A stretch of DNA of 64,000 bases. Origin: an uncultured Pseudomonadota bacterium (lineage in GTDB: Bacteria; Pseudomonadota; Alphaproteobacteria; JACZXZ01). Below, piece after piece: positions 50,968 to 60,724 of the stretch (position 1 is the stretch's first letter; each line of letters begins with the position of its first letter). The translations under genes and the position numbers were made by a program. The stretch is from NCBI GenBank assembly GCA_963749075.1, contig CAVVLJ010000016.1, forward strand, positions 1,248,001 to 1,312,000, given 5' to 3'. The notes beneath the pieces were generated by a model. It searched no databases. It was not told where the DNA came from and was given only the letters and a program-made list of their open reading frames with translations.

Positions 50968-51201
50968 ATGAAGAACTCCGACAAGCTCGCCGAGCACCAC
51001 AGCACCGCCGCCCATCACCACGAGCTCGCCGCCGAGCATCACCGCCACGCCGCCGAGCACCACAAGAACGACGACCACGAGAAGGCGGCGCATCACGCGC
51101 ATGTCGCCCACGGCCATCACCTCCACGCGGCCCACCACGCCGGAGAGGCGGGCAAGCTTCACGCCGAGCACCACAGCCAGGAAGCGAGCGAGGAGGACTA
51201 G
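50968..51201 (+). CDS. small histidine-rich protein
   Basis: GAGAGG RBS; 23 His in 77 aa, in AxxHH helical repeats. Confidence 0.8.
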   Translation: MKNSDKLAEHHSTAAHHHELAAEHHRHAAEHHKNDDHEKAAHHAHVAHGHHLHAAHHAGEAGKLHAEHHSQEASEED

Positions 51202-51238
51202 ACGGCCAGACGGGACGGCCCGCCGGGGACAGCGGCAC

Positions 51239-52241
51239 CTAGGCGCCGCGCGCGCGCTCCTGCCCATCCGCGAAATAGCCGGGGAACCTGCGCTTGAGGT
51301 TGTCCCGGATGCGCGCGAGCGGGTCCGTCCCCGGCGGCAAGAGGGTCTCGCCGGTGAGCGTCTCGAAGAGCCGCACGTAGCGCGCGCTCAGCTCCAGGCG
51401 CACCTCGTCCGGGATCGGCGGGATCGGCTCCTCGTAGGGGCGGCAATGGGCGTTGATCCAGAGCCGCACATATTCCTTGTCGAGCATCTCCGGCTCCTTG
51501 CCCGCGGCAAGGCGCTCCTCGTAGCTCGGCGCCAGCCAGAAGCGGCTCGAGTTCGGGCGTGTGAACCTCGTCCGCGAGCACGACCTCGCCGGCGCCGTCG
51601 AGGCCGAACTCGTACTTGGTGTCGACGAGGAGGATGCCGTGCTCCGCGCAGAGCTTGCGGCCGTGGGCGAAGACGTCGAGGCTCGCCGCCTTGATGCGCT
51701 CCCACTGCTGCTGCGTGCAGAGCCCCGCCGCGACGATGGCCCGCTCGCCGACCGGCACGTCGTGCTGGCCGAGGGGCGCCTTGCTCGTGGGCGTGATCAC
51801 CGGGCGCGGCAAGGCGCCGTTCTTGGCGAGGCCGTTGGGCAACTCGATGCCCCCGAACTCGCGCACGCCGTCCTGGTATTGCATCCAGATGCTGGTGCCG
51901 GTGGTGCCGGTCAGATAGGCGCGCACCACCACCTCGATCGGAATCATCTTGAGGGAGCGCGCGACGGTCACGTTCGGGTCGGGCACCTCGATGAGATGGT
52001 TGGGGCAGAGCGAGGCCGTGGAGCGGAACCAGAAGGCCGAAAGCCGGGTCAGGACCTGGCCCTTTTGCGGCACCGGCGACAGCATCTGGTCGAAGGCCAA
52101 CTGGCGGTCGGTGGCGATGATGATGCGCCGGCCGTCGTCCAGCGCGTAGCTGTCGCGCACCTTGCCGCCGTGGAAGCCGGGCAGCTCCGCGATATAGGCG
52201 CGCTCGAGGCAGACGGGGACGGCCTTGCTCGCGGTTGTCAT
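51239..52241 (-). CDS. purC: SAICAR synthase; apparent +1 frameshift at ~51552
   Basis: GKVRD, KGQVL, EVVVRAYLTG, LVDTKYEFG, DEVHTP; deleting one base restores TPDSSRFW...DKEYVRLW. Confidence 0.88.
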
Positions 52242-52499: not shown

Positions 52500-52694
52500 A
52501 TGCAAAAGCTCACCACGGCAGTCCAGCTCTTCCTGCGTGCACTCCGCTCGAAAGAGGGCGTCACGGCGATCGAGTACGGCCTCATCGCGGCTCTCATTGC
52601 CGTCGCGATCATCGGGGCCGTGACCGTTCTCGGCACCGACCTGACCGCGACCTTCAACATGGTCGCCGGCCACCTCGGCAACAGCCCGAGCTGA
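52500..52694 (+). CDS. Flp-family type IVb pilin
   Basis: EG|VTAIEYGLIAALIAVAII prepilin/Flp motif. Confidence 0.92.
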   Translation: MQKLTTAVQLFLRALRSKEGVTAIEYGLIAALIAVAIIGAVTVLGTDLTATFNMVAGHLGNSPS

Positions 52695-52821: not shown

Positions 52822-54795
52822 TCAAAGTCGCATTTTTCTTCGCGCAACCAGCATTCGTTTGCGAAATCCGCGCAGCTCCAGCACGGCGCCGTCTTCGGCC
52901 GGCACGGCGATCCGCGTGCGCCCGCCTGCCCGCGGCACGGCATGCGAGGCCAACGGGCGCTCGTCGAGCAGCACGTCCAGGCGCTCGATGTTCTCGCTCG
53001 CGACCGCGACGATGGCCTCGCGCCCGCGCTCGAGGATTTCCGCCTGCAGCCCGTAGACCGCCTTGCCGGCAAGGATGCGCGCGGCGTGGCGGATGAGGTC
53101 GCGGTTTCCCGCCAGCACGTCGTCGCGCGTCATGCGGTGGACCTCGTCGGGGACGATGCCGAACTCCTCCACCTCGATGCCGGCATGGCGGCCGACCCTG
53201 AGCGAGCGCCGCAGGGCCACGCGCAGGCTCGCCCCCTTGGGCAGCGCGCGGAGCGACAGCCCGAAGCGGCTGCGGCCGCGCCCGCGATGGGCGAAAATCG
53301 CCTGCAGGAGCTCGTAGCTCCAGACGTTGGCGCCGCCGGCACCGGTGTTCCCGTCGGTTCCGAGGATCGTTCCGACCGCGTGGTCGCGGAAGCCGGCCGT
53401 GAAGATGTCCGTCGTGCTGTAGCAAAGCCCGTTGGTGACCAGCACGACCGGTCCGAAATAGCGCTGGCCGATGGCGTTGCAGGTGGCGGCGGAGTCGAGC
53501 GGGATGCCCGCCGAATAGGCGGCCCCGGTCTCGCCCGCGCGCGCGAGCGACGGCAGCCAGCGGCCGAGATGGTCGCTCGGGTCGAGCCGGCAGAGCGCCT
53601 GGCAGTGGCGCGTGTTGCGCAGCTGCAGCGGCTCGGGCTCGATCGCGCGCGGCGTCAGGAGCTGCAGAAGCCGCTCGCCGTTCGTGAGCACGCCGCCGCC
53701 GTTGTCGCGCACGTCGAGGATGAGGCCGCGCGGCGGCATCAGTTCGAGCAGACGCACGAATTCCGCGACGAAGCGTTCGCCCTCCTCGACGTTGAAGGTG
53801 CGCAGCCGGATATAGCCGAAGCGGCCGTCGGGCGTGTCGACCGGGTGCGCCTCGAAGACCGCCGGCATGGTGCTTTCGCCCCGCGCGAGCTTGGCGGCGG
53901 GGGCCCGCCTGCGCGCGAGCCTTTGCTCGGCCGCCGCCACCTGCGGCCGGTAGAGGAGCTTCTTGCTGTGGCGGAGCGCATCGCACTCCACGTCCATGGC
54001 GAGCGACATGGCCGTGGCGCGGACGGCGTCGTGGGCCGCGCCGAGCACGTCGCGGCGGGGTGCGAAGACGAGCCAGGGCAGCTCGATGCGGCGCACGCGC
54101 CCGCCGCCTGAGCGGTAGGCGACGCTCACGGCCTCCTCCTCCGGCGGCAGGGCGCGCATCATCGGACGGACGGTGAGCCGCTTGACGCCGCGGGCGCGGC
54201 GCGCCGCCTCGTTGCCGGCGGCGTTGATGCCGCCCACGCGCATGACCGCGCGCTCGATCGGGACCCAGTTCCAGCTCAGCACTTCGACGCCGCGGCGGAA
54301 GCTCGCGTGCCGGAAGCCCGGCAGGAGACTGGTCACGATGTACTTCCGCGCCCCGCCCTCGAAGCAGTCCTCGACCTCGAAGGGCAGGAAGGCGACCGCC
54401 CGGTTGTAGGGCAGCGGCAGGAAGTAGTTGGTGTGCAGATCGCGCAGCGAGAGGAAGACCTCCGTCATCTCCTGGTGGAAGGAGAGATCGCTCGGCAGCT
54501 CCCTGAGCCGCAGGCGGAGGAGCTCGAGCCGGCGCACGGGGTCGATGCCGTGCATGGCCTTCTTCATCGGCAGGTGGACGTAGAACTCCTCGAGCAGCAG
54601 CATGGCCTGGTCGACGATGCGCCGCCGCTCGGCGAGCGAAAGCGCCGCGGCGCGGGCGAGAAACCGCGGCAGCGTCACAGCATGCTTGAGGTGCGGCTTC
54701 ACCGCATCGTCGATATCGGCGAGATAGGGCGCCGCAAGCCCGCCGCGGCGCCTATCCTGGCGCGCGGCCTTGCCCCGGCCGGGCGGACGTGGCAT
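52822..54795 (-). CDS. S41-family peptidase
   Basis: DLHT, GYIRLRTF, LILDVRDNGGG, CYSTTDIF (catalytic Ser), TGAGG; GGAGGG RBS; no signal peptide. Confidence 0.85.
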   Translation of the reverse strand: MPRPPGRGKAARQDRRRGGLAAPYLADIDDAVKPHLKHAVTLPRFLARAAALSLAERRRIVDQAMLLLEEFYVHLPMKKAMHGIDPVRRLELLRLRLRELPSDLSFHQEMTEVFLSLRDLHTNYFLPLPYNRAVAFLPFEVEDCFEGGARKYIVTSLLPGFRHASFRRGVEVLSWNWVPIERAVMRVGGINAAGNEAARRARGVKRLTVRPMMRALPPEEEAVSVAYRSGGGRVRRIELPWLVFAPRRDVLGAAHDAVRATAMSLAMDVECDALRHSKKLLYRPQVAAAEQRLARRRAPAAKLARGESTMPAVFEAHPVDTPDGRFGYIRLRTFNVEEGERFVAEFVRLLELMPPRGLILDVRDNGGGVLTNGERLLQLLTPRAIEPEPLQLRNTRHCQALCRLDPSDHLGRWLPSLARAGETGAAYSAGIPLDSAATCNAIGQRYFGPVVLVTNGLCYSTTDIFTAGFRDHAVGTILGTDGNTGAGGANVWSYELLQAIFAHRGRGRSRFGLSLRALPKGASLRVALRRSLRVGRHAGIEVEEFGIVPDEVHRMTRDDVLAGNRDLIRHAARILAGKAVYGLQAEILERGREAIVAVASENIERLDVLLDERPLASHAVPRAGGRTRIAVPAEDGAVLELRGFRKRMLVARRKMRL

Positions 54796-55031
54796 GGCGT
54801 TCTCCCCTCCTGCAGCGACTCCGCCTCACGCCGGAGAGAGCCCTCTCAGCACCGCCCGGCCATCCACCATGGACGCGATCCGGGCGCGGGCGCGCGCTCT
54901 AGCGGCTCGCGATAGGTTCAGGGGAAAATTTTCTTAGATTTCCTAGTCCGGATCAAGCTATCCTCATAGAAAAGGTGAGCGTCTCCGCGCGACGCAGGCC
55001 AAGCGGAGTGCCGCAGGGGGCCGATAAAAAG

Positions 55032-58000
55032 GTGAGATGCGGCGGGTGCCATAGCGAGAACCCGGACGGCAATCGCTTTTGCGATCGCTGCGGCGCGCCC
55101 CTTGCGAGAGCCTGCGCCTCCTGCGGCTACGAGAACCGCGCGGAGGCCAAGTTCTGCGGCGGCTGCGGGCGCACCCTCGAGGCGGCAGCGCCGGGGGCAG
55201 CCGCGCACCCTCCGGCCGTGCGCGGGCTCTCGGCCGCCGACTACACGCCCCAGCATCTGGCGGCGCGCATTCTGAGCTCGCGCCTGACCCTTGCCGGCGA
55301 GCGCAAGCAAGTCACCGTGCTCTTTGCCGACATCCGCGGCTCGACCGAGCTCATCCACGGGCTCGATCCCGAGCAGGCGCTCGAGAGGCTCGATCCCGGG
55401 CTCAAGGCCATGATGGATGCCGTCCACCGCTACGAGGGCGTGGTGAGCCGGGTGCAGGGCGACGGCATCATGGCCCTCTTCGGCGCCCCGATCGCCCACG
55501 AGGACCACGCGGTGCGCGCCTGCCTCGCCGCCCGCGCCATGTTGGATTCGATCGCGCGGCTCGAGGGCAGCCCGCTGCGCATCAGGGTCGGCATGAACTC
55601 GGGCGAGGTGGTGGTGCGCTCGGTCGGCAACGATCTCTCGCTGGAATACGACGCCGTGGGCTTCACCGTGCATCTCGCCGCGCGCATGGAGCAGTTCGCC
55701 GCACCCGGCACCGCCTGCTTGAGCCCGAGCACGGTCAAGCTCGCGCGCGGCTTCGTCGAGGTGCGCTCGCTCGGCCTCCAAGACGTGAAGGGCATGACCG
55801 AGCCCGTCGAGATCTGCGAGCTCGTCGCCATCACCGGGCGCGCGCGCTGGGAGGTCAGGCTCGCCGGGCACAGCTTGAGCCGCTTCGTGGGCCGCAGCAC
55901 GGAAGTCGCGATCCTCGTCGATGCCATCAGGCGGACGGTCGCCGGGCGCGGCCAGATCGTCGCCGTCGTCGGCGAGCCGGGAGTGGGGAAATCCCGCCTG
56001 GTGCACGAATTCCTCGCCGCCGCACCGGCAAGCGATTGCGCCGTGCTGCGCGCGGGCGCCACGCCGCACGACCGCGACACCCCGTTCCTTCTCGCGGCCG
56101 AGCTGCTGCGCGCCTGGCTCGGCGTCGCCGGACGCGACAGCCAGGGCGAGATCGCAGGCAAGCTCGCGCGCGCCGTAGCGGAGATCGACGGCCAGCTGCT
56201 CGCGGCGCTGGCGCCGCTCAAGTCGCTCCTCGACCTGCCGACCGAGGACGCAGGCTGGGAGCGCCTCGACCCGCTGCTGCGGCGCCAGCGCGTGCGCGAC
56301 GCCTTTCGCCTGCTCATCCTCAAGGCGGCCGCGACGAAGCCGCTCATCCTCGTCGTCGAGGACCTGCATTGGGTGGACGGCGAGAGCGCTGCACTCCTCG
56401 ATGCCGTGGCCGCCGGGCTTGGCGCCGCTCGGCTTCTCCTCGTCGCGACCTTTCGTCCGGAATACCGCCACGGCTGGGCGGCGCACGGCTCTTTCTCGCT
56501 CGTGCGCGTCAATCCCCTCGAGGAGGCCGCCGCGGACGAGCTGCTGCGCTCGCTGTTCGGCGACGGCCAGGGGCTCGAGGCCCTGCGGCACCGCCTCATC
56601 GCGCGCTGCGAGGGCACGCCGCTTTTCCTCGAGGAGATGGTGCGGGCGCTCGTCGAGACCGGCGTGCTCGCGCGCGCGCGGCTCACGCGCAGCCTCGAGG
56701 AGGTCGTCATCCCCAACTCGGTGCAGGCCGTGCTGGCGGCGCGCATCGACCGCCTCTCCGCGGAGAACCGCAGCCTGCTGCAGATCGCCTCCGTGATCGG
56801 CAAGGACCTGCCGCTCGAGCTCTTGCAGGCCCTCACGGGCATGCCGGAGGAGCAGCTGCAGGTGCTGCTCGCCGATCTGTGCGCCGCCGAGTTTCTCTAC
56901 GAGGTCAACCTGCCGACCGGCACGGAATACACCTTCAAGCACGCGCTCACCCATGAGGTGGCCTACGAGGGCCTGCTGCTGGCGCGCCGGCGCGAGCTTC
57001 ACGCGCGCGTGGCCAAGGCCATGGCAGCGGCCTATCCCGACCGCCTCGACGAGCTCACCGAGCGCCTTGCCGACCACGCGCTCGCGGGCGAGCTGTGGGC
57101 CGAGGCGGTGGACTATTGCTTCAAGGCCGGACGCCGCGCCAACCAGCGCTCGGCCCACCGGGAGGCCATCGTCTATTTCCGCCGCGCGCTCGCGGCACTC
57201 GCGCACCGGCCCCAGGAGGGTGCTGCCATCGCTCAGGCGATCGACATCCGCCTCGGGCTGCGCATCGCACTCGCCGCCGCAGGAGAGCATCGCGAGATCA
57301 AGAGCGTGCTCGAGGAGGCCGAGGCCCTCGCCCAGTCGGTCGACGACCGGCCGCGGCTGGCGCTCGTCAAGAGCAGCAAATGCATCACCCTCACGATTCT
57401 CGGACCGGTGGACGAGGCGATCCCGGCCGGCCGGCTTGCCCTGGCGCTCGCCGAAGAGCTGCACGACGGCCCCACGCTTCTCAATGCCAGCTATGGACTC
57501 GGACAGGCCTATTGGTACCACGGCGATTTCGACGCGGCGATCGAGGTCCTCGCGCCCATCGCCGAGCGCCTGACCTCGGATCTCAAGCTCAGCTATGCCG
57601 GGACGACCGGCACCGCGGCGGTGCTTTGCCTGGGCTGCCTCGCCAACGCGTACAGCTTCGCGGGCCGCTTCGCGGAGGCCTTTGCCGCCGCCGCGGAGAC
57701 CATGGCGGCCGCCGAAGCGACCGGCCGCCCTTACGACGCGTGCTATGCACGCATCGCGCGCGGGCTCGCCTCGCTCACGCAAGGCGCGCTCGCGGCGGCG
57801 ATCGACGATTTCGAGGAGGCCCTGCGCATTTGCAGCAGCGCCGAAATCCGCCTGCTGGTGCCCGCCACGGTGCGCTATCTCGGCCGCGCCTATAGCCTCG
57901 TCGGGCGGCACCGCGAGGCCTCGGCGCTCGCCGCGGACGCGCTCGAGCTCTCGAAGTCGCAAGGCCTCGGCGCGCTGATCGCGTGGTGCGGCGCGGCGCT

Positions 58001-58397
58001 GGCCGAGGCGGAGCTCGCCGCCGGCCTCGGCGCGCGCGCCCGAGAGACGGCAACCGCCGCCCACGAGATGGCGCACCAGAACGGGTTTCGTCCCGTCGAG
58101 CTGCAATGCCTCAGGCTCCTCGGCGCGCTGCAAGCCGCGGGCGGCAACGAGGCGCTCGGCCGCGCGGAGGCCCATTACCGCGAGGCGCTGGCGCTCGGGC
58201 GGGCGATCGGCATGCGTCCCGAGCTCGCCCATTGCCATGCCGAGCTGGCCGGCGTGTTGCGCCAGGCCGGCCGCACCGCCGAAGCGGGACAAGAAGAGGC
58301 CGCGGCAATTGAGCTCTACCGCGCCATGGGGATGACGTGGTATATCGCTCGCGGAGAATTCGCTGGCGCTGCATCCGAGACTCCCGGTACAACCTGA
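55032..58397 (+). CDS. double zinc ribbon + class III nucleotide cyclase + STAND/AAA ATPase + TPR protein
   Basis: Four CxxC, VTVLFADIRGST, GDGIMALFGAP, GEPGVGKS, VEDLHW, FKHAL, helical repeats (alternative start 54975). Confidence 0.9.
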   Translation: MRCGGCHSENPDGNRFCDRCGAPLARACASCGYENRAEAKFCGGCGRTLEAAAPGAAAHPPAVRGLSAADYTPQHLAARILSSRLTLAGERKQVTVLFADIRGSTELIHGLDPEQALERLDPGLKAMMDAVHRYEGVVSRVQGDGIMALFGAPIAHEDHAVRACLAARAMLDSIARLEGSPLRIRVGMNSGEVVVRSVGNDLSLEYDAVGFTVHLAARMEQFAAPGTACLSPSTVKLARGFVEVRSLGLQDVKGMTEPVEICELVAITGRARWEVRLAGHSLSRFVGRSTEVAILVDAIRRTVAGRGQIVAVVGEPGVGKSRLVHEFLAAAPASDCAVLRAGATPHDRDTPFLLAAELLRAWLGVAGRDSQGEIAGKLARAVAEIDGQLLAALAPLKSLLDLPTEDAGWERLDPLLRRQRVRDAFRLLILKAAATKPLILVVEDLHWVDGESAALLDAVAAGLGAARLLLVATFRPEYRHGWAAHGSFSLVRVNPLEEAAADELLRSLFGDGQGLEALRHRLIARCEGTPLFLEEMVRALVETGVLARARLTRSLEEVVIPNSVQAVLAARIDRLSAENRSLLQIASVIGKDLPLELLQALTGMPEEQLQVLLADLCAAEFLYEVNLPTGTEYTFKHALTHEVAYEGLLLARRRELHARVAKAMAAAYPDRLDELTERLADHALAGELWAEAVDYCFKAGRRANQRSAHREAIVYFRRALAALAHRPQEGAAIAQAIDIRLGLRIALAAAGEHREIKSVLEEAEALAQSVDDRPRLALVKSSKCITLTILGPVDEAIPAGRLALALAEELHDGPTLLNASYGLGQAYWYHGDFDAAIEVLAPIAERLTSDLKLSYAGTTGTAAVLCLGCLANAYSFAGRFAEAFAAAAETMAAAEATGRPYDACYARIARGLASLTQGALAAAIDDFEEALRICSSAEIRLLVPATVRYLGRAYSLVGRHREASALAADALELSKSQGLGALIAWCGAALAEAELAAGLGARARETATAAHEMAHQNGFRPVELQCLRLLGALQAAGGNEALGRAEAHYREALALGRAIGMRPELAHCHAELAGVLRQAGRTAEAGQEEAAAIELYRAMGMTWYIARGEFAGAASETPGTT

Positions 58398-58481: not shown

Positions 58482-58718
58482 ATGGCGAAGGCAATAACGA
58501 TCAAGCATATGGCGAGCGTCCTGGCCAAGGCGTCGCGGGATGCGAACTTCAAGAAGAAGCTGATGTTGGCCCCGGCGAAGACGCTCAAGGAGCACGGCTA
58601 CGAGCCGCACAAGGAGGCCGTCGCGGTCATCAAGTCGCTCAAGCACAAGAGCTTCGGCGCCGCGCCCAAGAAGCGCAAGAAGCGCGATTCTCACGCCTCG
58701 AGCGCCGCGGAGAGCTAA
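58482..58718 (+). CDS. putative RiPP precursor with NHLP-like leader
   Basis: GGGAG RBS; VLAKASRDANFKKKLMLAPAKTLKEHG fits the NHLP-clan pattern; stop 8 nt before rSAM gene. Confidence 0.7.
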   Translation: MAKAITIKHMASVLAKASRDANFKKKLMLAPAKTLKEHGYEPHKEAVAVIKSLKHKSFGAAPKKRKKRDSHASSAAES

Positions 58719-58726
58719 GACCCGAC

Positions 58727-60724
58727 ATGACGCGGCCGGCGAGAGTCCTTCTCGTCTCGATGCCGCTGTCGGCGCCGCATTATCCCAGCATGGGCCTGAG
58801 CCTGCTCAAGCCCGCGCTGGAGCGCGCGGGACTCGCCTGCGAGATCCGCTATTTCTCGCTCGATTACGTCGACCGGCTCGGCGCCGACGCGCACGACTGC
58901 CTGACCGACCCGCGCTATTACATGGCGCACGTCGGCGAATGGGTGTTTGCCGCGGCGGCGCACGACGGAGTGCCGCGCGACGACGGCCTCGGCTTCTTCA
59001 CCGAGTACTTCCAGAAGGCCTACGCCGAGCACTATACGCCGGCGCGGCTCATGACGTTCCTCGCGGCGCGCGAGGAAGCGGCGGACTTCATCGAGCGCTG
59101 CCTCGACGAGGTGGACGGCGCTCGATACGCCATGGTCGGCTTCGGCTCGGCCTTTCAGCAGAACATGGCCTCGCTGGCGCTGGCGCGCCGGCTCAAGGCG
59201 CGCTATCCGCATCTCGCCATCGTCTTCGGCGGCACCAACTGCCAGGGCGACATGGGCGCCGAGCTCCACCGCCGCTACCCCTTCATCGACGCGGTCTGCC
59301 TGGGCGAGGGCGATCTCGTCTTCCCCGAGTTCGCGCGGCGCCGGCTCGCGGGCGAGGACTGCGCCGGCATGGCGGGAATGGCGGTGAGACGCGCCGGCGA
59401 GAGCGTCGTGCCGAGCCGCATGACGGTGCCCGTCGAGGACATGGACGCCCTCCCCTACCCCGACTTCGCGGAGTTCTTCGCGCAGCACGCGGGCTCGCCT
59501 ATCGCGCGGCGCTATTATCCGCCGGCGGCGGTGTTCGAGACCTCGCGCGGCTGCTGGTGGGGGGCGAAGCACCATTGCACCTTCTGCGGCCTCAACGCCC
59601 TCACCCTCGCCTATCGCAGCAAATCCCAGGCGCGCGCCTACGACGAGCTCGCCTATCTCGCCCAGCGCTACGGCAGCAACCTCGCCAACGCCGACCTCAT
59701 CCTCGATCAGCGCTATTTCGAGGAGTTCATCCCCCGCCTCGCCGAGGAGGGACCCGAGGTGACGATCTATTACGAGATGAAGGCGAACCTGAAGCCCGAG
59801 CAGCTCGTGCTGCTCTCACGCGCGGGCATCAAGAAGATCCAGCCCGGCCTCGAGTTCCTCTCGAGCGGCATCCTCAAGCTGATCGACAAGGGCTGCTCGA
59901 TGCTGCAGAACGTGCAGACCCTCAAGCTCGCCGCCGAGTGCGGCATCTACGTCGAGTGGCTGGCGCTCCACGGCATTCCCGGCGAGACGCCCGAGCAGTA
60001 CCTGCGCATGGCACAGCTCATCCCGAAGCTCAGGCACCTGCAGCCGCCGAGCGGCTTCATCCCCGCCCGCGCCGACCGCTTCAGCCCCTATTTCTACCGC
60101 CCCGAGGCTTACGGCGTGGCGCTCGAGCCGGCGCCCGTCTACCGCTTCATCTATCCCTTCGAGGAGGCGAGCCTGCGCCAGCTCGCCTACCATTTCGACA
60201 TGCGCTCCCCTGCCCTCGCGCGGCTCGCCGAGTACACGCGTCCCGCCGCGAAGCAATATCGCATCTGGCAGCAGCGCTGGCAGGCGAGCGCGCTCACCGC
60301 GGAGGAGCTCGGCGACGCCATCGCGATCTCGGACGAGCGCCCGGCCAGGGCCAAGAGGAGCTGGATCCTGCGCGGCGCCGAGGCGGCGATCCTCGGCCTC
60401 GCCTGGAAGATCGCGGCGCGCCACGCCATCGAGAAGACGGTGGCCGGGCGCTTCGGCGCTGAGGCGACGGCCCGCGCACTCAAGTCCCTCATCGCCCGCG
60501 GCCTCCTCCTGCAGGAGGGCGAGCAGTTCCTGGCGCTGCCGCTCCGCCAGCCGGGCCACCGGCGGGCGCCGACGTGGGAGGAGATCCGCAGCGCGCGCAC
60601 GACGCCCTATCTTTTGCGCGGATACCGGCGGCGCGGCCCGCGCATGCCTCTGCGCGCGGCAATGGACGGCGAGGCCTCGCTCGTCGGCGTCAGCGGCGAT
60701 GGAGCTGTCGGCGATAGACCTTGA
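58727..60724 (+). CDS. B12-binding RiPP-maturation radical SAM protein (class B methyltransferase-like)
   Basis: VLLVSMP..PSMGLSLLK, GEWVF, FQQNMASLALA, GEGD, ETSRGCWWGAKHHCTFCGLN, YEMKANL, QPG, DRFSPYF. Confidence 0.9.
   Translation: MTRPARVLLVSMPLSAPHYPSMGLSLLKPALERAGLACEIRYFSLDYVDRLGADAHDCLTDPRYYMAHVGEWVFAAAAHDGVPRDDGLGFFTEYFQKAYAEHYTPARLMTFLAAREEAADFIERCLDEVDGARYAMVGFGSAFQQNMASLALARRLKARYPHLAIVFGGTNCQGDMGAELHRRYPFIDAVCLGEGDLVFPEFARRRLAGEDCAGMAGMAVRRAGESVVPSRMTVPVEDMDALPYPDFAEFFAQHAGSPIARRYYPPAAVFETSRGCWWGAKHHCTFCGLNALTLAYRSKSQARAYDELAYLAQRYGSNLANADLILDQRYFEEFIPRLAEEGPEVTIYYEMKANLKPEQLVLLSRAGIKKIQPGLEFLSSGILKLIDKGCSMLQNVQTLKLAAECGIYVEWLALHGIPGETPEQYLRMAQLIPKLRHLQPPSGFIPARADRFSPYFYRPEAYGVALEPAPVYRFIYPFEEASLRQLAYHFDMRSPALARLAEYTRPAAKQYRIWQQRWQASALTAEELGDAIAISDERPARAKRSWILRGAEAAILGLAWKIAARHAIEKTVAGRFGAEATARALKSLIARGLLLQEGEQFLALPLRQPGHRRAPTWEEIRSARTTPYLLRGYRRRGPRMPLRAAMDGEASLVGVSGDGAVGDRP

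Follow-up and report, generated by a model that had tools for sequence, protein, structure and literature searches.

We have analyzed a 64,000-nucleotide stretch of the genome of an uncultured alphaproteobacterium (positions 1,248,001 to 1,312,000 of contig CAVVLJ010000016.1; called the window below). It contains a small cassette in which the gene for a 78-aa precursor-like peptide directly precedes the gene for a predicted vitamin B12-binding radical S-adenosylmethionine (SAM) enzyme, abbreviated rSAM. Judged from gene order, family membership and conservation, peptide and enzyme appear to be a genuine substrate-maturase pair of the kind that joins a nitrile hydratase-like leader peptide (NHLP) to an enzyme of family TIGR03975. 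The pair belongs to a larger conserved module, which includes a nucleotide cyclase fused to a STAND (signal transduction ATPase with numerous domains) ATPase and, often, a peptidase of family S41. The reading that we favour, with a little more belief than doubt, is that the pair would act in a leader-dependent manner, the enzyme methylating the tail of the peptide near Glu77 and the S41 peptidase then releasing that tail, and that the whole would be a signalling-linked module.

The peptide is encoded on the + strand at 58482..58718, with a Shine-Dalgarno-like GGGAG 7 nt ahead of its ATG. Its TAA stop codon is followed by 8 nt, GACCCGAC, and then by the ATG of the rSAM gene at 58727. The peptide contains 16 Lys, 3 Arg and no Cys, has a pI of 10.4 and ends in the tail KSFGAAPKKRKKRDSHASSAAES. 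An earlier interpretation of this DNA from its letters alone (the sequence-only reading) had described a 78-aa peptide with 16 Lys and no Cys, lacking a GG site and lying 8 nt before a B12-dependent rSAM, and this description is accurate when compared with the letters and the list of open reading frames (ORFs). Full-length conservation of the ORF is seen in 10 other protein clusters, at 60-85% identity. The peptide scored 30 bits against NF038399 ("Os1348 family NHLP clan protein"; cut-off 40), 22.5 bits against the NHLP leader family TIGR03793, under its cut-off of 50.9, and 21.5 bits against PF14407 (cut-off 48). Three homologues that the window-family profile detected score above the NF038399 cut-off, namely those of loci L007 (41.6 bits), L013 (43.2 bits) and L024 (51.3 bits). 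By this homology the peptide, an Os1348-type leader domain followed by a tail, is assigned to the NHLP clan although its own scores are sub-threshold, in agreement with what had been proposed from the letters.

The rSAM has 665 residues (58727..60724, + strand). It matches the NCBIfam model TIGR03975 (rSAM_ocin_1, "RiPP maturation radical SAM C-methyltransferase", where RiPP denotes a peptide that is made by the ribosome and modified after translation) with 604.3 bits against a cut-off of 281.85, and its residues 7-606 cover model positions 1-606. Among Pfam models, Radical_SAM scored 40.7 bits (cut-off 29.5) and B12-binding 25.2 bits, against a gathering score of 32.1; the latter region falls in the TIGR03975 alignment. 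By sequence, its nearest solved relatives are TokK and CysS, two cobalamin-dependent methylases. The enzyme carries the cluster-binding motif Cx7Cx2C (CWWGAKHHCTFC, residues 276-287; 59552..59587, + strand). All 79 related rSAMs that span the site share it, 75 of them letter for letter, and CxxxCxxC occurs in none. Passages of a review (PMC11285071) describe the Cx7Cx2C motif of PoyC as unique, and state that PoyC methylates the Cβ of Ile and Val residues. The family match and this motif bear out the earlier assignment to the PoyC-like class B of B12-dependent rSAMs, and the enzyme is a predicted peptide C-methyltransferase of that class. It is the only TIGR03975-family gene found by a genome-wide profile search, and CbiC, a marker of cobalamin synthesis, is also present in the genome.

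The pairing of the two genes was assessed over 80 loci (the window and 79 others) and in a tree of the corresponding rSAMs, from which the fragment L047 was dropped. A profile made from the window peptide detected a homologous ORF on the same strand upstream of the rSAM in 34 of the 80 loci, and L010 was added by eye. All 35 peptide-bearing rows fall in one rSAM clade of 36 rows, with a support of 99 in the Shimodaira-Hasegawa-like approximate likelihood ratio test (SH-aLRT); the remaining row, L021, ends at a contig edge. Similar peptides were present beside 35 of 36 homologous rSAMs in the clade, and the claim that peptide and enzyme are a pair stands. A search for the rSAM found it in all 5 of the other genomes of the genus, in none of 5 that represent other genera of the family and in none of 20 from other families of the class. 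The nearest loci are those of soil alphaproteobacterial metagenome-assembled genomes (MAGs), while the others of the clade belong to Acetobacteraceae, other Rhodospirillales, Roseobacteraceae, Rhizobiaceae and one Thiobacillus MAG. Belnapia mucosa, Neoroseomonas eburnea, Ruegeria arenilitoris and Flavimaribacter sediminis are cultured carriers. Among the sequencing runs listed, one DNA run from a soil metagenome contains 0.61 of the words of the sequence, and no RNA run that contains it is among them. Other clades of TIGR03975 enzymes adjoin an unrelated precursor family (L059, L060, L065, L069, L073, L074 and L077; for example L073:3389-3742), which has a conserved N-terminus ..KSLEMRVAELEDKLS..EEEMKAY.KVS.L, Cys-rich repeats (IRACT) and a GGFGGFGG end; their hosts are Acidobacteriota, Solirubrobacterales and a Rhodobacterales MAG.

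Residues 1-61 of the peptide (58482..58664, + strand) are predicted to form a helical, leader-like domain, which ends in a conserved F-x-A-A and aligns in all relatives. An AlphaFold2 model based on an alignment of 26 sequences, with a mean predicted local distance difference test score (pLDDT) of 67, places four helices between residues 7 and 52; residues 11-50 have a pLDDT of 72-78. From about residue 53 the tail is unstructured in this model, and pLDDT is <50 for residues 73-78. The leader-like domain is followed by a Lys/Arg-rich linker, PKKRKKRD (58665..58688, + strand), the last residue of which is a conserved Asp at position -10, and then by the putative core SHASSAAES, with Glu77 as its penultimate residue (58689..58715, + strand).

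In the sequence-only reading the core had been cationic and polar. However, the Lys/Arg run is limited to the genus-level group of the window (L001-4, L047, P0002-P0011), and other branches have FKPHDP, Glu/Ala repeats, KAGKD or neutral linkers in its place. The conserved elements of the peptide are the helical domain with its F-x-x-A-A end, an Asp about 10 residues from the C-terminus and the penultimate residue; its conserved C-terminal part consists of the last ~9-10 residues, D-x7-8-[E/D]-x. Alignment of the precursors that lie beside close rSAM homologues, which had been proposed as a means of finding the core, does reveal a conserved C-terminal tail, but the cationic stretch is not part of it and is better described as a lineage-specific linker. 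Since the tail is conserved and the linker is variable, we consider the putative core to be the anionic nonapeptide SHASSAAES, containing Glu77, rather than the cationic stretch.

Conservation of the tail was followed in two larger sets. A profile search of 5.8 billion proteins yielded 39 family clusters, of which all 11 that bear a name from their source are called "hypothetical protein". Position -2 is Glu or Asp in 31 of the 39 and Cys in the other 8, always within DGVIRPRC-x, and an Asp is present between -11 and -8 in all 39. An exhaustive hidden Markov model search of 1.84 billion representatives gave 554 matches at E <= 0.001; from the best 150 of these, 104 short representatives were taken and 42 longer proteins set aside. 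Among the short ones position -2 is Glu or Asp in 56, Cys in 7 and another residue in 41, and 7 of the latter have Trp. These last (P0081, P0083, P0085, P0095, P0111, P0127 and P0130) represent a third tail type, with endings such as ..GGRPVIGLWL and ..PLPNNWF. A Trp-type tail is also found in the Thiobacillus MAG (L024:2664-7293), where a leader-family peptide ending in ..GRAVVGLWI, a second radical SAM protein of 326 aa, the B12-dependent rSAM and a C11 (clostripain-family) peptidase occur together, without a STAND cyclase and with a phage-type integrase nearby. As for the longer proteins, those above 130 aa make up 42 of the 146 new representatives, and many of them have several matched stretches: 2-5 tandem copies of the leader-like domain are found in proteins of 170-1029 aa (P0043, P0048, P0052, P0066, P0073, P0167 and others), so the domain is not confined to short precursors.

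Upstream of the pair lies the gene for a protein of 1140 aa (54975..58397, + strand), whose Pfam domains are, in order, a double zinc ribbon, a class III nucleotide cyclase, a STAND (AAA_16) ATPase and tetratricopeptide repeats (TPR). Its true start is probably the GTG at 55032, since relatives carry a stop codon just before VRCGGC. Two copies of AAAAGGTGAG occur in the AT-rich intergenic region (54890-55040) between this gene and the divergent S41 gene, with one candidate GTG start (54975 or 55032) inside each of them. The STAND cyclase adjoins the rSAM in 33 of the 80 loci, which are 33 of the 36 clade loci; the three clade loci without an adjoining STAND gene are two contig ends and L024. 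In a tree of 102 STAND proteins, with matches <600 aa or containing internal stops left out, 30 cassette-linked copies fall in one set of 33 rows and form the same sub-groups as in the rSAM tree. This clustering, and its mirroring of the rSAM tree, argues that the STAND cyclase has co-diversified with the rSAM and is not a chance neighbour.

The cyclase domain scored 70.6 bits against Guanylate_cyc (cut-off 21.9), which places it among class III nucleotide cyclases. The metal-binding residues Asp119 and Asp163 and the Walker A and B residues are invariant in 23 of 23 STAND proteins. At other positions the protein differs from canonical class III enzymes: of the 23 sequences, 12 share Arg159, 6 share Asp226, a variable position, and 17 share His233, where 3 have Asn. 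We take Arg159, Asp226 and His233 to be the positions of the substrate-specifying Lys/Asp and the transition-state Asn, and the canonical adenylate cyclase set of these residues is not found here. A Crp-like gene, encoding cyclic nucleotide-binding and helix-turn-helix domains, lies directly downstream of the rSAM in 8 loci. No such gene was found near the cassette of the window, and distant homologues are present elsewhere in the genome.

Divergent from the cyclase gene is a gene for a CPAF-like S41 serine peptidase of 657 aa (52822..54795, - strand). The Peptidase_S41 domain (PF03572) scored 62 bits against a cut-off of 24. The CPAF family model also scored 62 bits, below its cut-off, and the protein falls under the equivalog cut-offs of prc, CtpA, CtpB, CtpC and CPAF. 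The top fold matches of its model (pLDDT 67.6) are CPAF structures, with a template modelling (TM) score of 0.62. His74 and Ser460 are conserved without exception in the 9 S41 sequences compared, and by eye no signal peptide is seen. The S41 gene adjoins the cassette in the genus of the window and in L006, L012, L020, L023 and L062. These five loci are 5 of the 10 further genomes searched, and 5 of the 6 among them that have an E/D-type tail. The sequence-only reading had mentioned neither this peptidase nor the STAND cyclase and had described the rSAM as a lone enzyme. That description does not hold, since 33 of 36 clade loci have the cyclase beside the pair and most of the Glu-type loci tested have the S41 peptidase there.

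From these observations a mechanism can be proposed. The N-terminal ~60 residues would be a helical leader that docks the peptide on the enzyme, and the Lys-rich run would serve only as a linker. Using methylcobalamin and a 5'-deoxyadenosyl radical, the rSAM would methylate an unactivated carbon within SHASSAAES, most likely at or beside Glu77. The CPAF-like S41 protease, which would be cytoplasmic, would then release the modified, short tail by a cut that probably falls close to the conserved Asp at -10. The pair belongs to a module that co-evolves; the STAND protein, its other constant member, could be a sensor of the peptide or a regulator of its synthesis. A role in intracellular cyclic-nucleotide signalling is more likely for the product than that of a secreted antibiotic, because no exporter is conserved with the cassette and cyclase and Crp genes are present.

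Several observations weigh against this proposal. At the level of the substrate, the window peptide lies under the cut-offs of all leader models, and the 41 of 104 short representatives mentioned above have neither Glu/Asp nor Cys at position -2. As regards the chemistry, B12-dependent rSAMs also catalyse non-methylating reactions, according to parts of PMC10635010, and the tail contains neither Val nor Ile, the targets of PoyC (Ile3 and valines 5, 10 and 21, in passages of PMC11285071). The site and type of modification are deduced from conservation and from the distant precedent of ApyD, discussed below. As regards the accessory genes, the window query found no S41 gene in L010 or in 3 of 3 genomes with Cys-type tails and gave a weak match in L013, while an S41 homologue is also present without the cassette in the actinobacterial locus L083. 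Finally, the family of STAND cyclases has many members, most of them without a link to such peptides; among the matches listed, the pair was found in 1 of 80 further loci.

The best placed of the alternatives, although we regard it as unlikely, is a peptide-signal circuit in which the modified tail, released by the protease, would be the ligand of the TPR sensor of the STAND protein, whose cyclase would oligomerise and make a cyclic nucleotide (cNMP) to be read by the Crp-like regulator. This takes the favoured reading a step further by making the STAND protein the receptor. The co-diversification of the cyclase with the rSAM, the invariance of its metal-binding Asp and Walker residues, the Crp-like gene of the 8 loci and the want of a conserved exporter are all consistent with such a circuit, as is the curation of a homologous cyclase-ATPase architecture as TIGR03903, a model that the protein of the window matches with 289.6 bits. 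A complex prediction for STAND residues 600-1140 (the TPR half) with the peptide, with alignments as input, gave 0.00 in both runs and bears neither way on binding. On the other hand, the cassette of the window is without a Crp-like gene nearby, the substrate Lys and transition-state Asn of canonical cyclases are missing from this one, and STAND/LAL-type proteins commonly serve merely as regulators of pathways. A fuller version of the same idea is more doubtful still. It would amount to a type of bacterial signalling module not known before: an rSAM-modified tail of 8-10 residues, cut from an NHLP-like precursor by the cytoplasmic CPAF-like protease, would be read by the STAND-TPR sensor and converted into a cyclic-nucleotide output, with a Crp-like reader in some lineages, and the penultimate Glu/Asp, Cys or Trp would be the modified specificity determinant.

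Second among the alternatives, and also doubtful, is that the product would be an ordinary secreted RiPP with bioactivity, antimicrobial or surfactant, as proteusins are. The STAND cyclase would then be no more than the cluster regulator, and unlinked or neighbouring pumps such as NodT/MdtA/AcrB would provide export. The architecture of a leader and a variable core, an enzyme family named for RiPP maturation and a protease in the cluster would all fit such a product. So would the patchy distribution of the rSAM (all 5 genomes in the genus and none of 25 others), which is typical of accessory clusters. The genes directly downstream of the cassette in the window do encode resistance-nodulation-division (RND) efflux components (NodT, MdtA and AcrB), and it had been suggested from the letters that they may export the product. 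However, just 3 of the 80 loci have NodT beside the cassette and just 1 has MdtA, and these are the nearest relatives of the window; the Rhodobacterales and Rhizobiaceae loci have unrelated ATP-binding cassette (ABC) importers downstream. The efflux genes were rejected as dedicated exporters on these grounds of conservation. No C39, ABC or major facilitator superfamily (MFS) exporter is conserved with the cassette, the peptide has no GG site, and the putative core is tiny, polar and anionic. The proteusin criteria, namely an rSAM epimerase, a GG site and a C39 or C1A protease, find no counterpart at the locus.

The absences listed in the sequence-only reading fared as follows. No YcaO was found anywhere in the genome, which is 96% complete, and the lack of an epimerase agrees with the finding of no second rSAM in the window, other weak rSAM matches being located elsewhere in the genome. 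The lack of a C39 transporter holds near the locus, and the only C39 peptidase found is encoded on another contig. A search for LanC-like proteins also gave no match, but its control was silent as well, so that this negative carries no weight.

An intact small protein is the improbable third alternative. Here the tail would be modified after translation to mark a stable helical protein, much as methyl-coenzyme M reductase is methylated, and the S41 peptidase would act in quality control or turnover rather than in maturation. The predicted fold of the N-terminal domain, the full-length conservation of the peptide, the recurrence of the same domain 2-5 times in the longer proteins (42 of 146 new representatives >130 aa) and the Cys-type loci that have no S41 protease are in keeping with it. 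Yet the tail varies far more than the domain does, which is the pattern of precursor peptides, proteases recur nearby (S41, C11), and the enzyme family is curated as a RiPP maturase. Anti-phage defence of the Pycsar type was rejected, since the PADLOC models for PycC hit only the generic cyclase domain with <=54 bits and no other PADLOC model matches any cassette protein, and a cofactor precursor like that of pyrroloquinoline quinone (PQQ) or mycofactocin was set aside because the tails differ wholly between branches (E/D-x, RPRC-x, W-x).

Of the other genes in the vicinity, a small ORF at 52500-52694 (+), ending in ..EGVTAIEYGLIAALIAVAIIGAVTVLG.., resembles a Flp/Fap-type pilin gene by eye. 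The ORF at 51198-52241 (-) is by eye an ordinary, PurC-like enzyme over its first ~240 residues; the ~100 residues at its end are rich in Arg, Pro and Gly and seem to be read in the wrong frame, perhaps because of a frameshift or a faulty assembly. The 14 kb beyond the window contain AcrB, an S8 subtilase, a thiamine pyrophosphate (TPP) enzyme and unknown ORFs, and no extra RiPP enzymes turned up within this distance. The subtilase (762 aa) lies beside a 772-aa ORF without a Pfam match, downstream of AcrB and 5-10 kb past the end of the window (L089:5700-10387).

If, as in the reading that we favour, the enzyme methylates the peptide at the penultimate Glu, this would be a new type of substrate and a minimal, nine-residue core for B12-dependent peptide C-methyltransferases. 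With a co-diversifying STAND cyclase, often a protease of its own, sometimes a Crp-like protein and no conserved exporter, the module suggests a RiPP-like peptide inside a cNMP circuit rather than a secreted weapon. A link between RiPPs and cNMPs has so far been hinted at only by the uncharacterised curated family TIGR03903, and the cultured carriers would allow direct testing. The locus had been proposed as a new class of RiPP, but NCBIfam already models both the enzyme family and the leader domain. It had also been said to have no characterised counterpart, and here the literature agrees: no description of the module, of the tail motif or of an S41 protease in RiPP maturation was found in it, supplementary tables not being covered. 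Of the 18 places where "S41" appears in the leader-protease review PMC10885120, the 12 covered contain no mention of the peptidase.

Among known systems, PoyB and PoyC of the proteusin polytheonamide are similar in that the enzyme of the window is likewise a class B rSAM, with a putative N-terminal cobalamin domain, the Cx7Cx2C motif described for PoyC and a match to the family named for such C-methyltransferases, TIGR03975 (604 bits), and that the substrate carries a nitrile hydratase-like leader. This likeness is based on the motif and the family model, the rSAM tree having been made without PoyB and PoyC. In contrast to polytheonamide, the locus of the window has no epimerase, GG site or C1A/C39 protease; its putative core is 9 polar residues without Val or Ile targets, compared with a hydrophobic core of ~49 residues, and it includes a STAND cyclase and an S41 protease. 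With regard to position, the closest precedent is ApyD (NF050148). Parts of PMC10635010 report that ApyD methylates the Cβ of the penultimate Tyr of its ribosomal precursor, all modifications of which are in the last five residues. The conserved position in the window family is penultimate as well. The rSAM of the window is a distant relative of ApyD, with 50.6 bits against the NF050148 cut-off of 750; ApyA lacks an NHLP leader, and the oxidative enzyme of the multinuclear non-heme iron-dependent type (MNIO), P450 and methyltransferase of the apy clusters are absent here.

Clavusporin (MpcA/MpcB/MpcC/MpcP) offers, in passages of PMC10849626, an example of leader-dependent C-methylation by a B12-dependent rSAM with removal of the leader by a protease of the cluster. 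Its cluster is actinobacterial; the S9 peptidase, DUF5825 and transporter found there have no counterpart at the locus of the window, and its precursor is a 39-mer with a hydrophobic core and an acidic follower. The STAND cyclase in turn resembles TIGR03903 (TOMM system kinase/cyclase fusion protein, TOMM denoting thiazole/oxazole-modified microcin), with its cyclase, its ATPase and the helical region after them (query residues 107-859) aligned to model positions 282-1039; the 289.6 bits are below the cut-off of 705.75, and a double zinc ribbon takes the place of the kinase domain. The TIGR03903 family presumably sits beside NHLP-clan precursors with a different maturase; the maturase here is a B12-dependent rSAM and not a cyclodehydratase, in a genome where no YcaO was found. 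In comparison with these systems, we rate the enzyme family and the leader clan as already known and curated, and as novel the association of a PoyC-family enzyme with a putative minimal, polar C-terminal target in a probable cNMP-signalling module.

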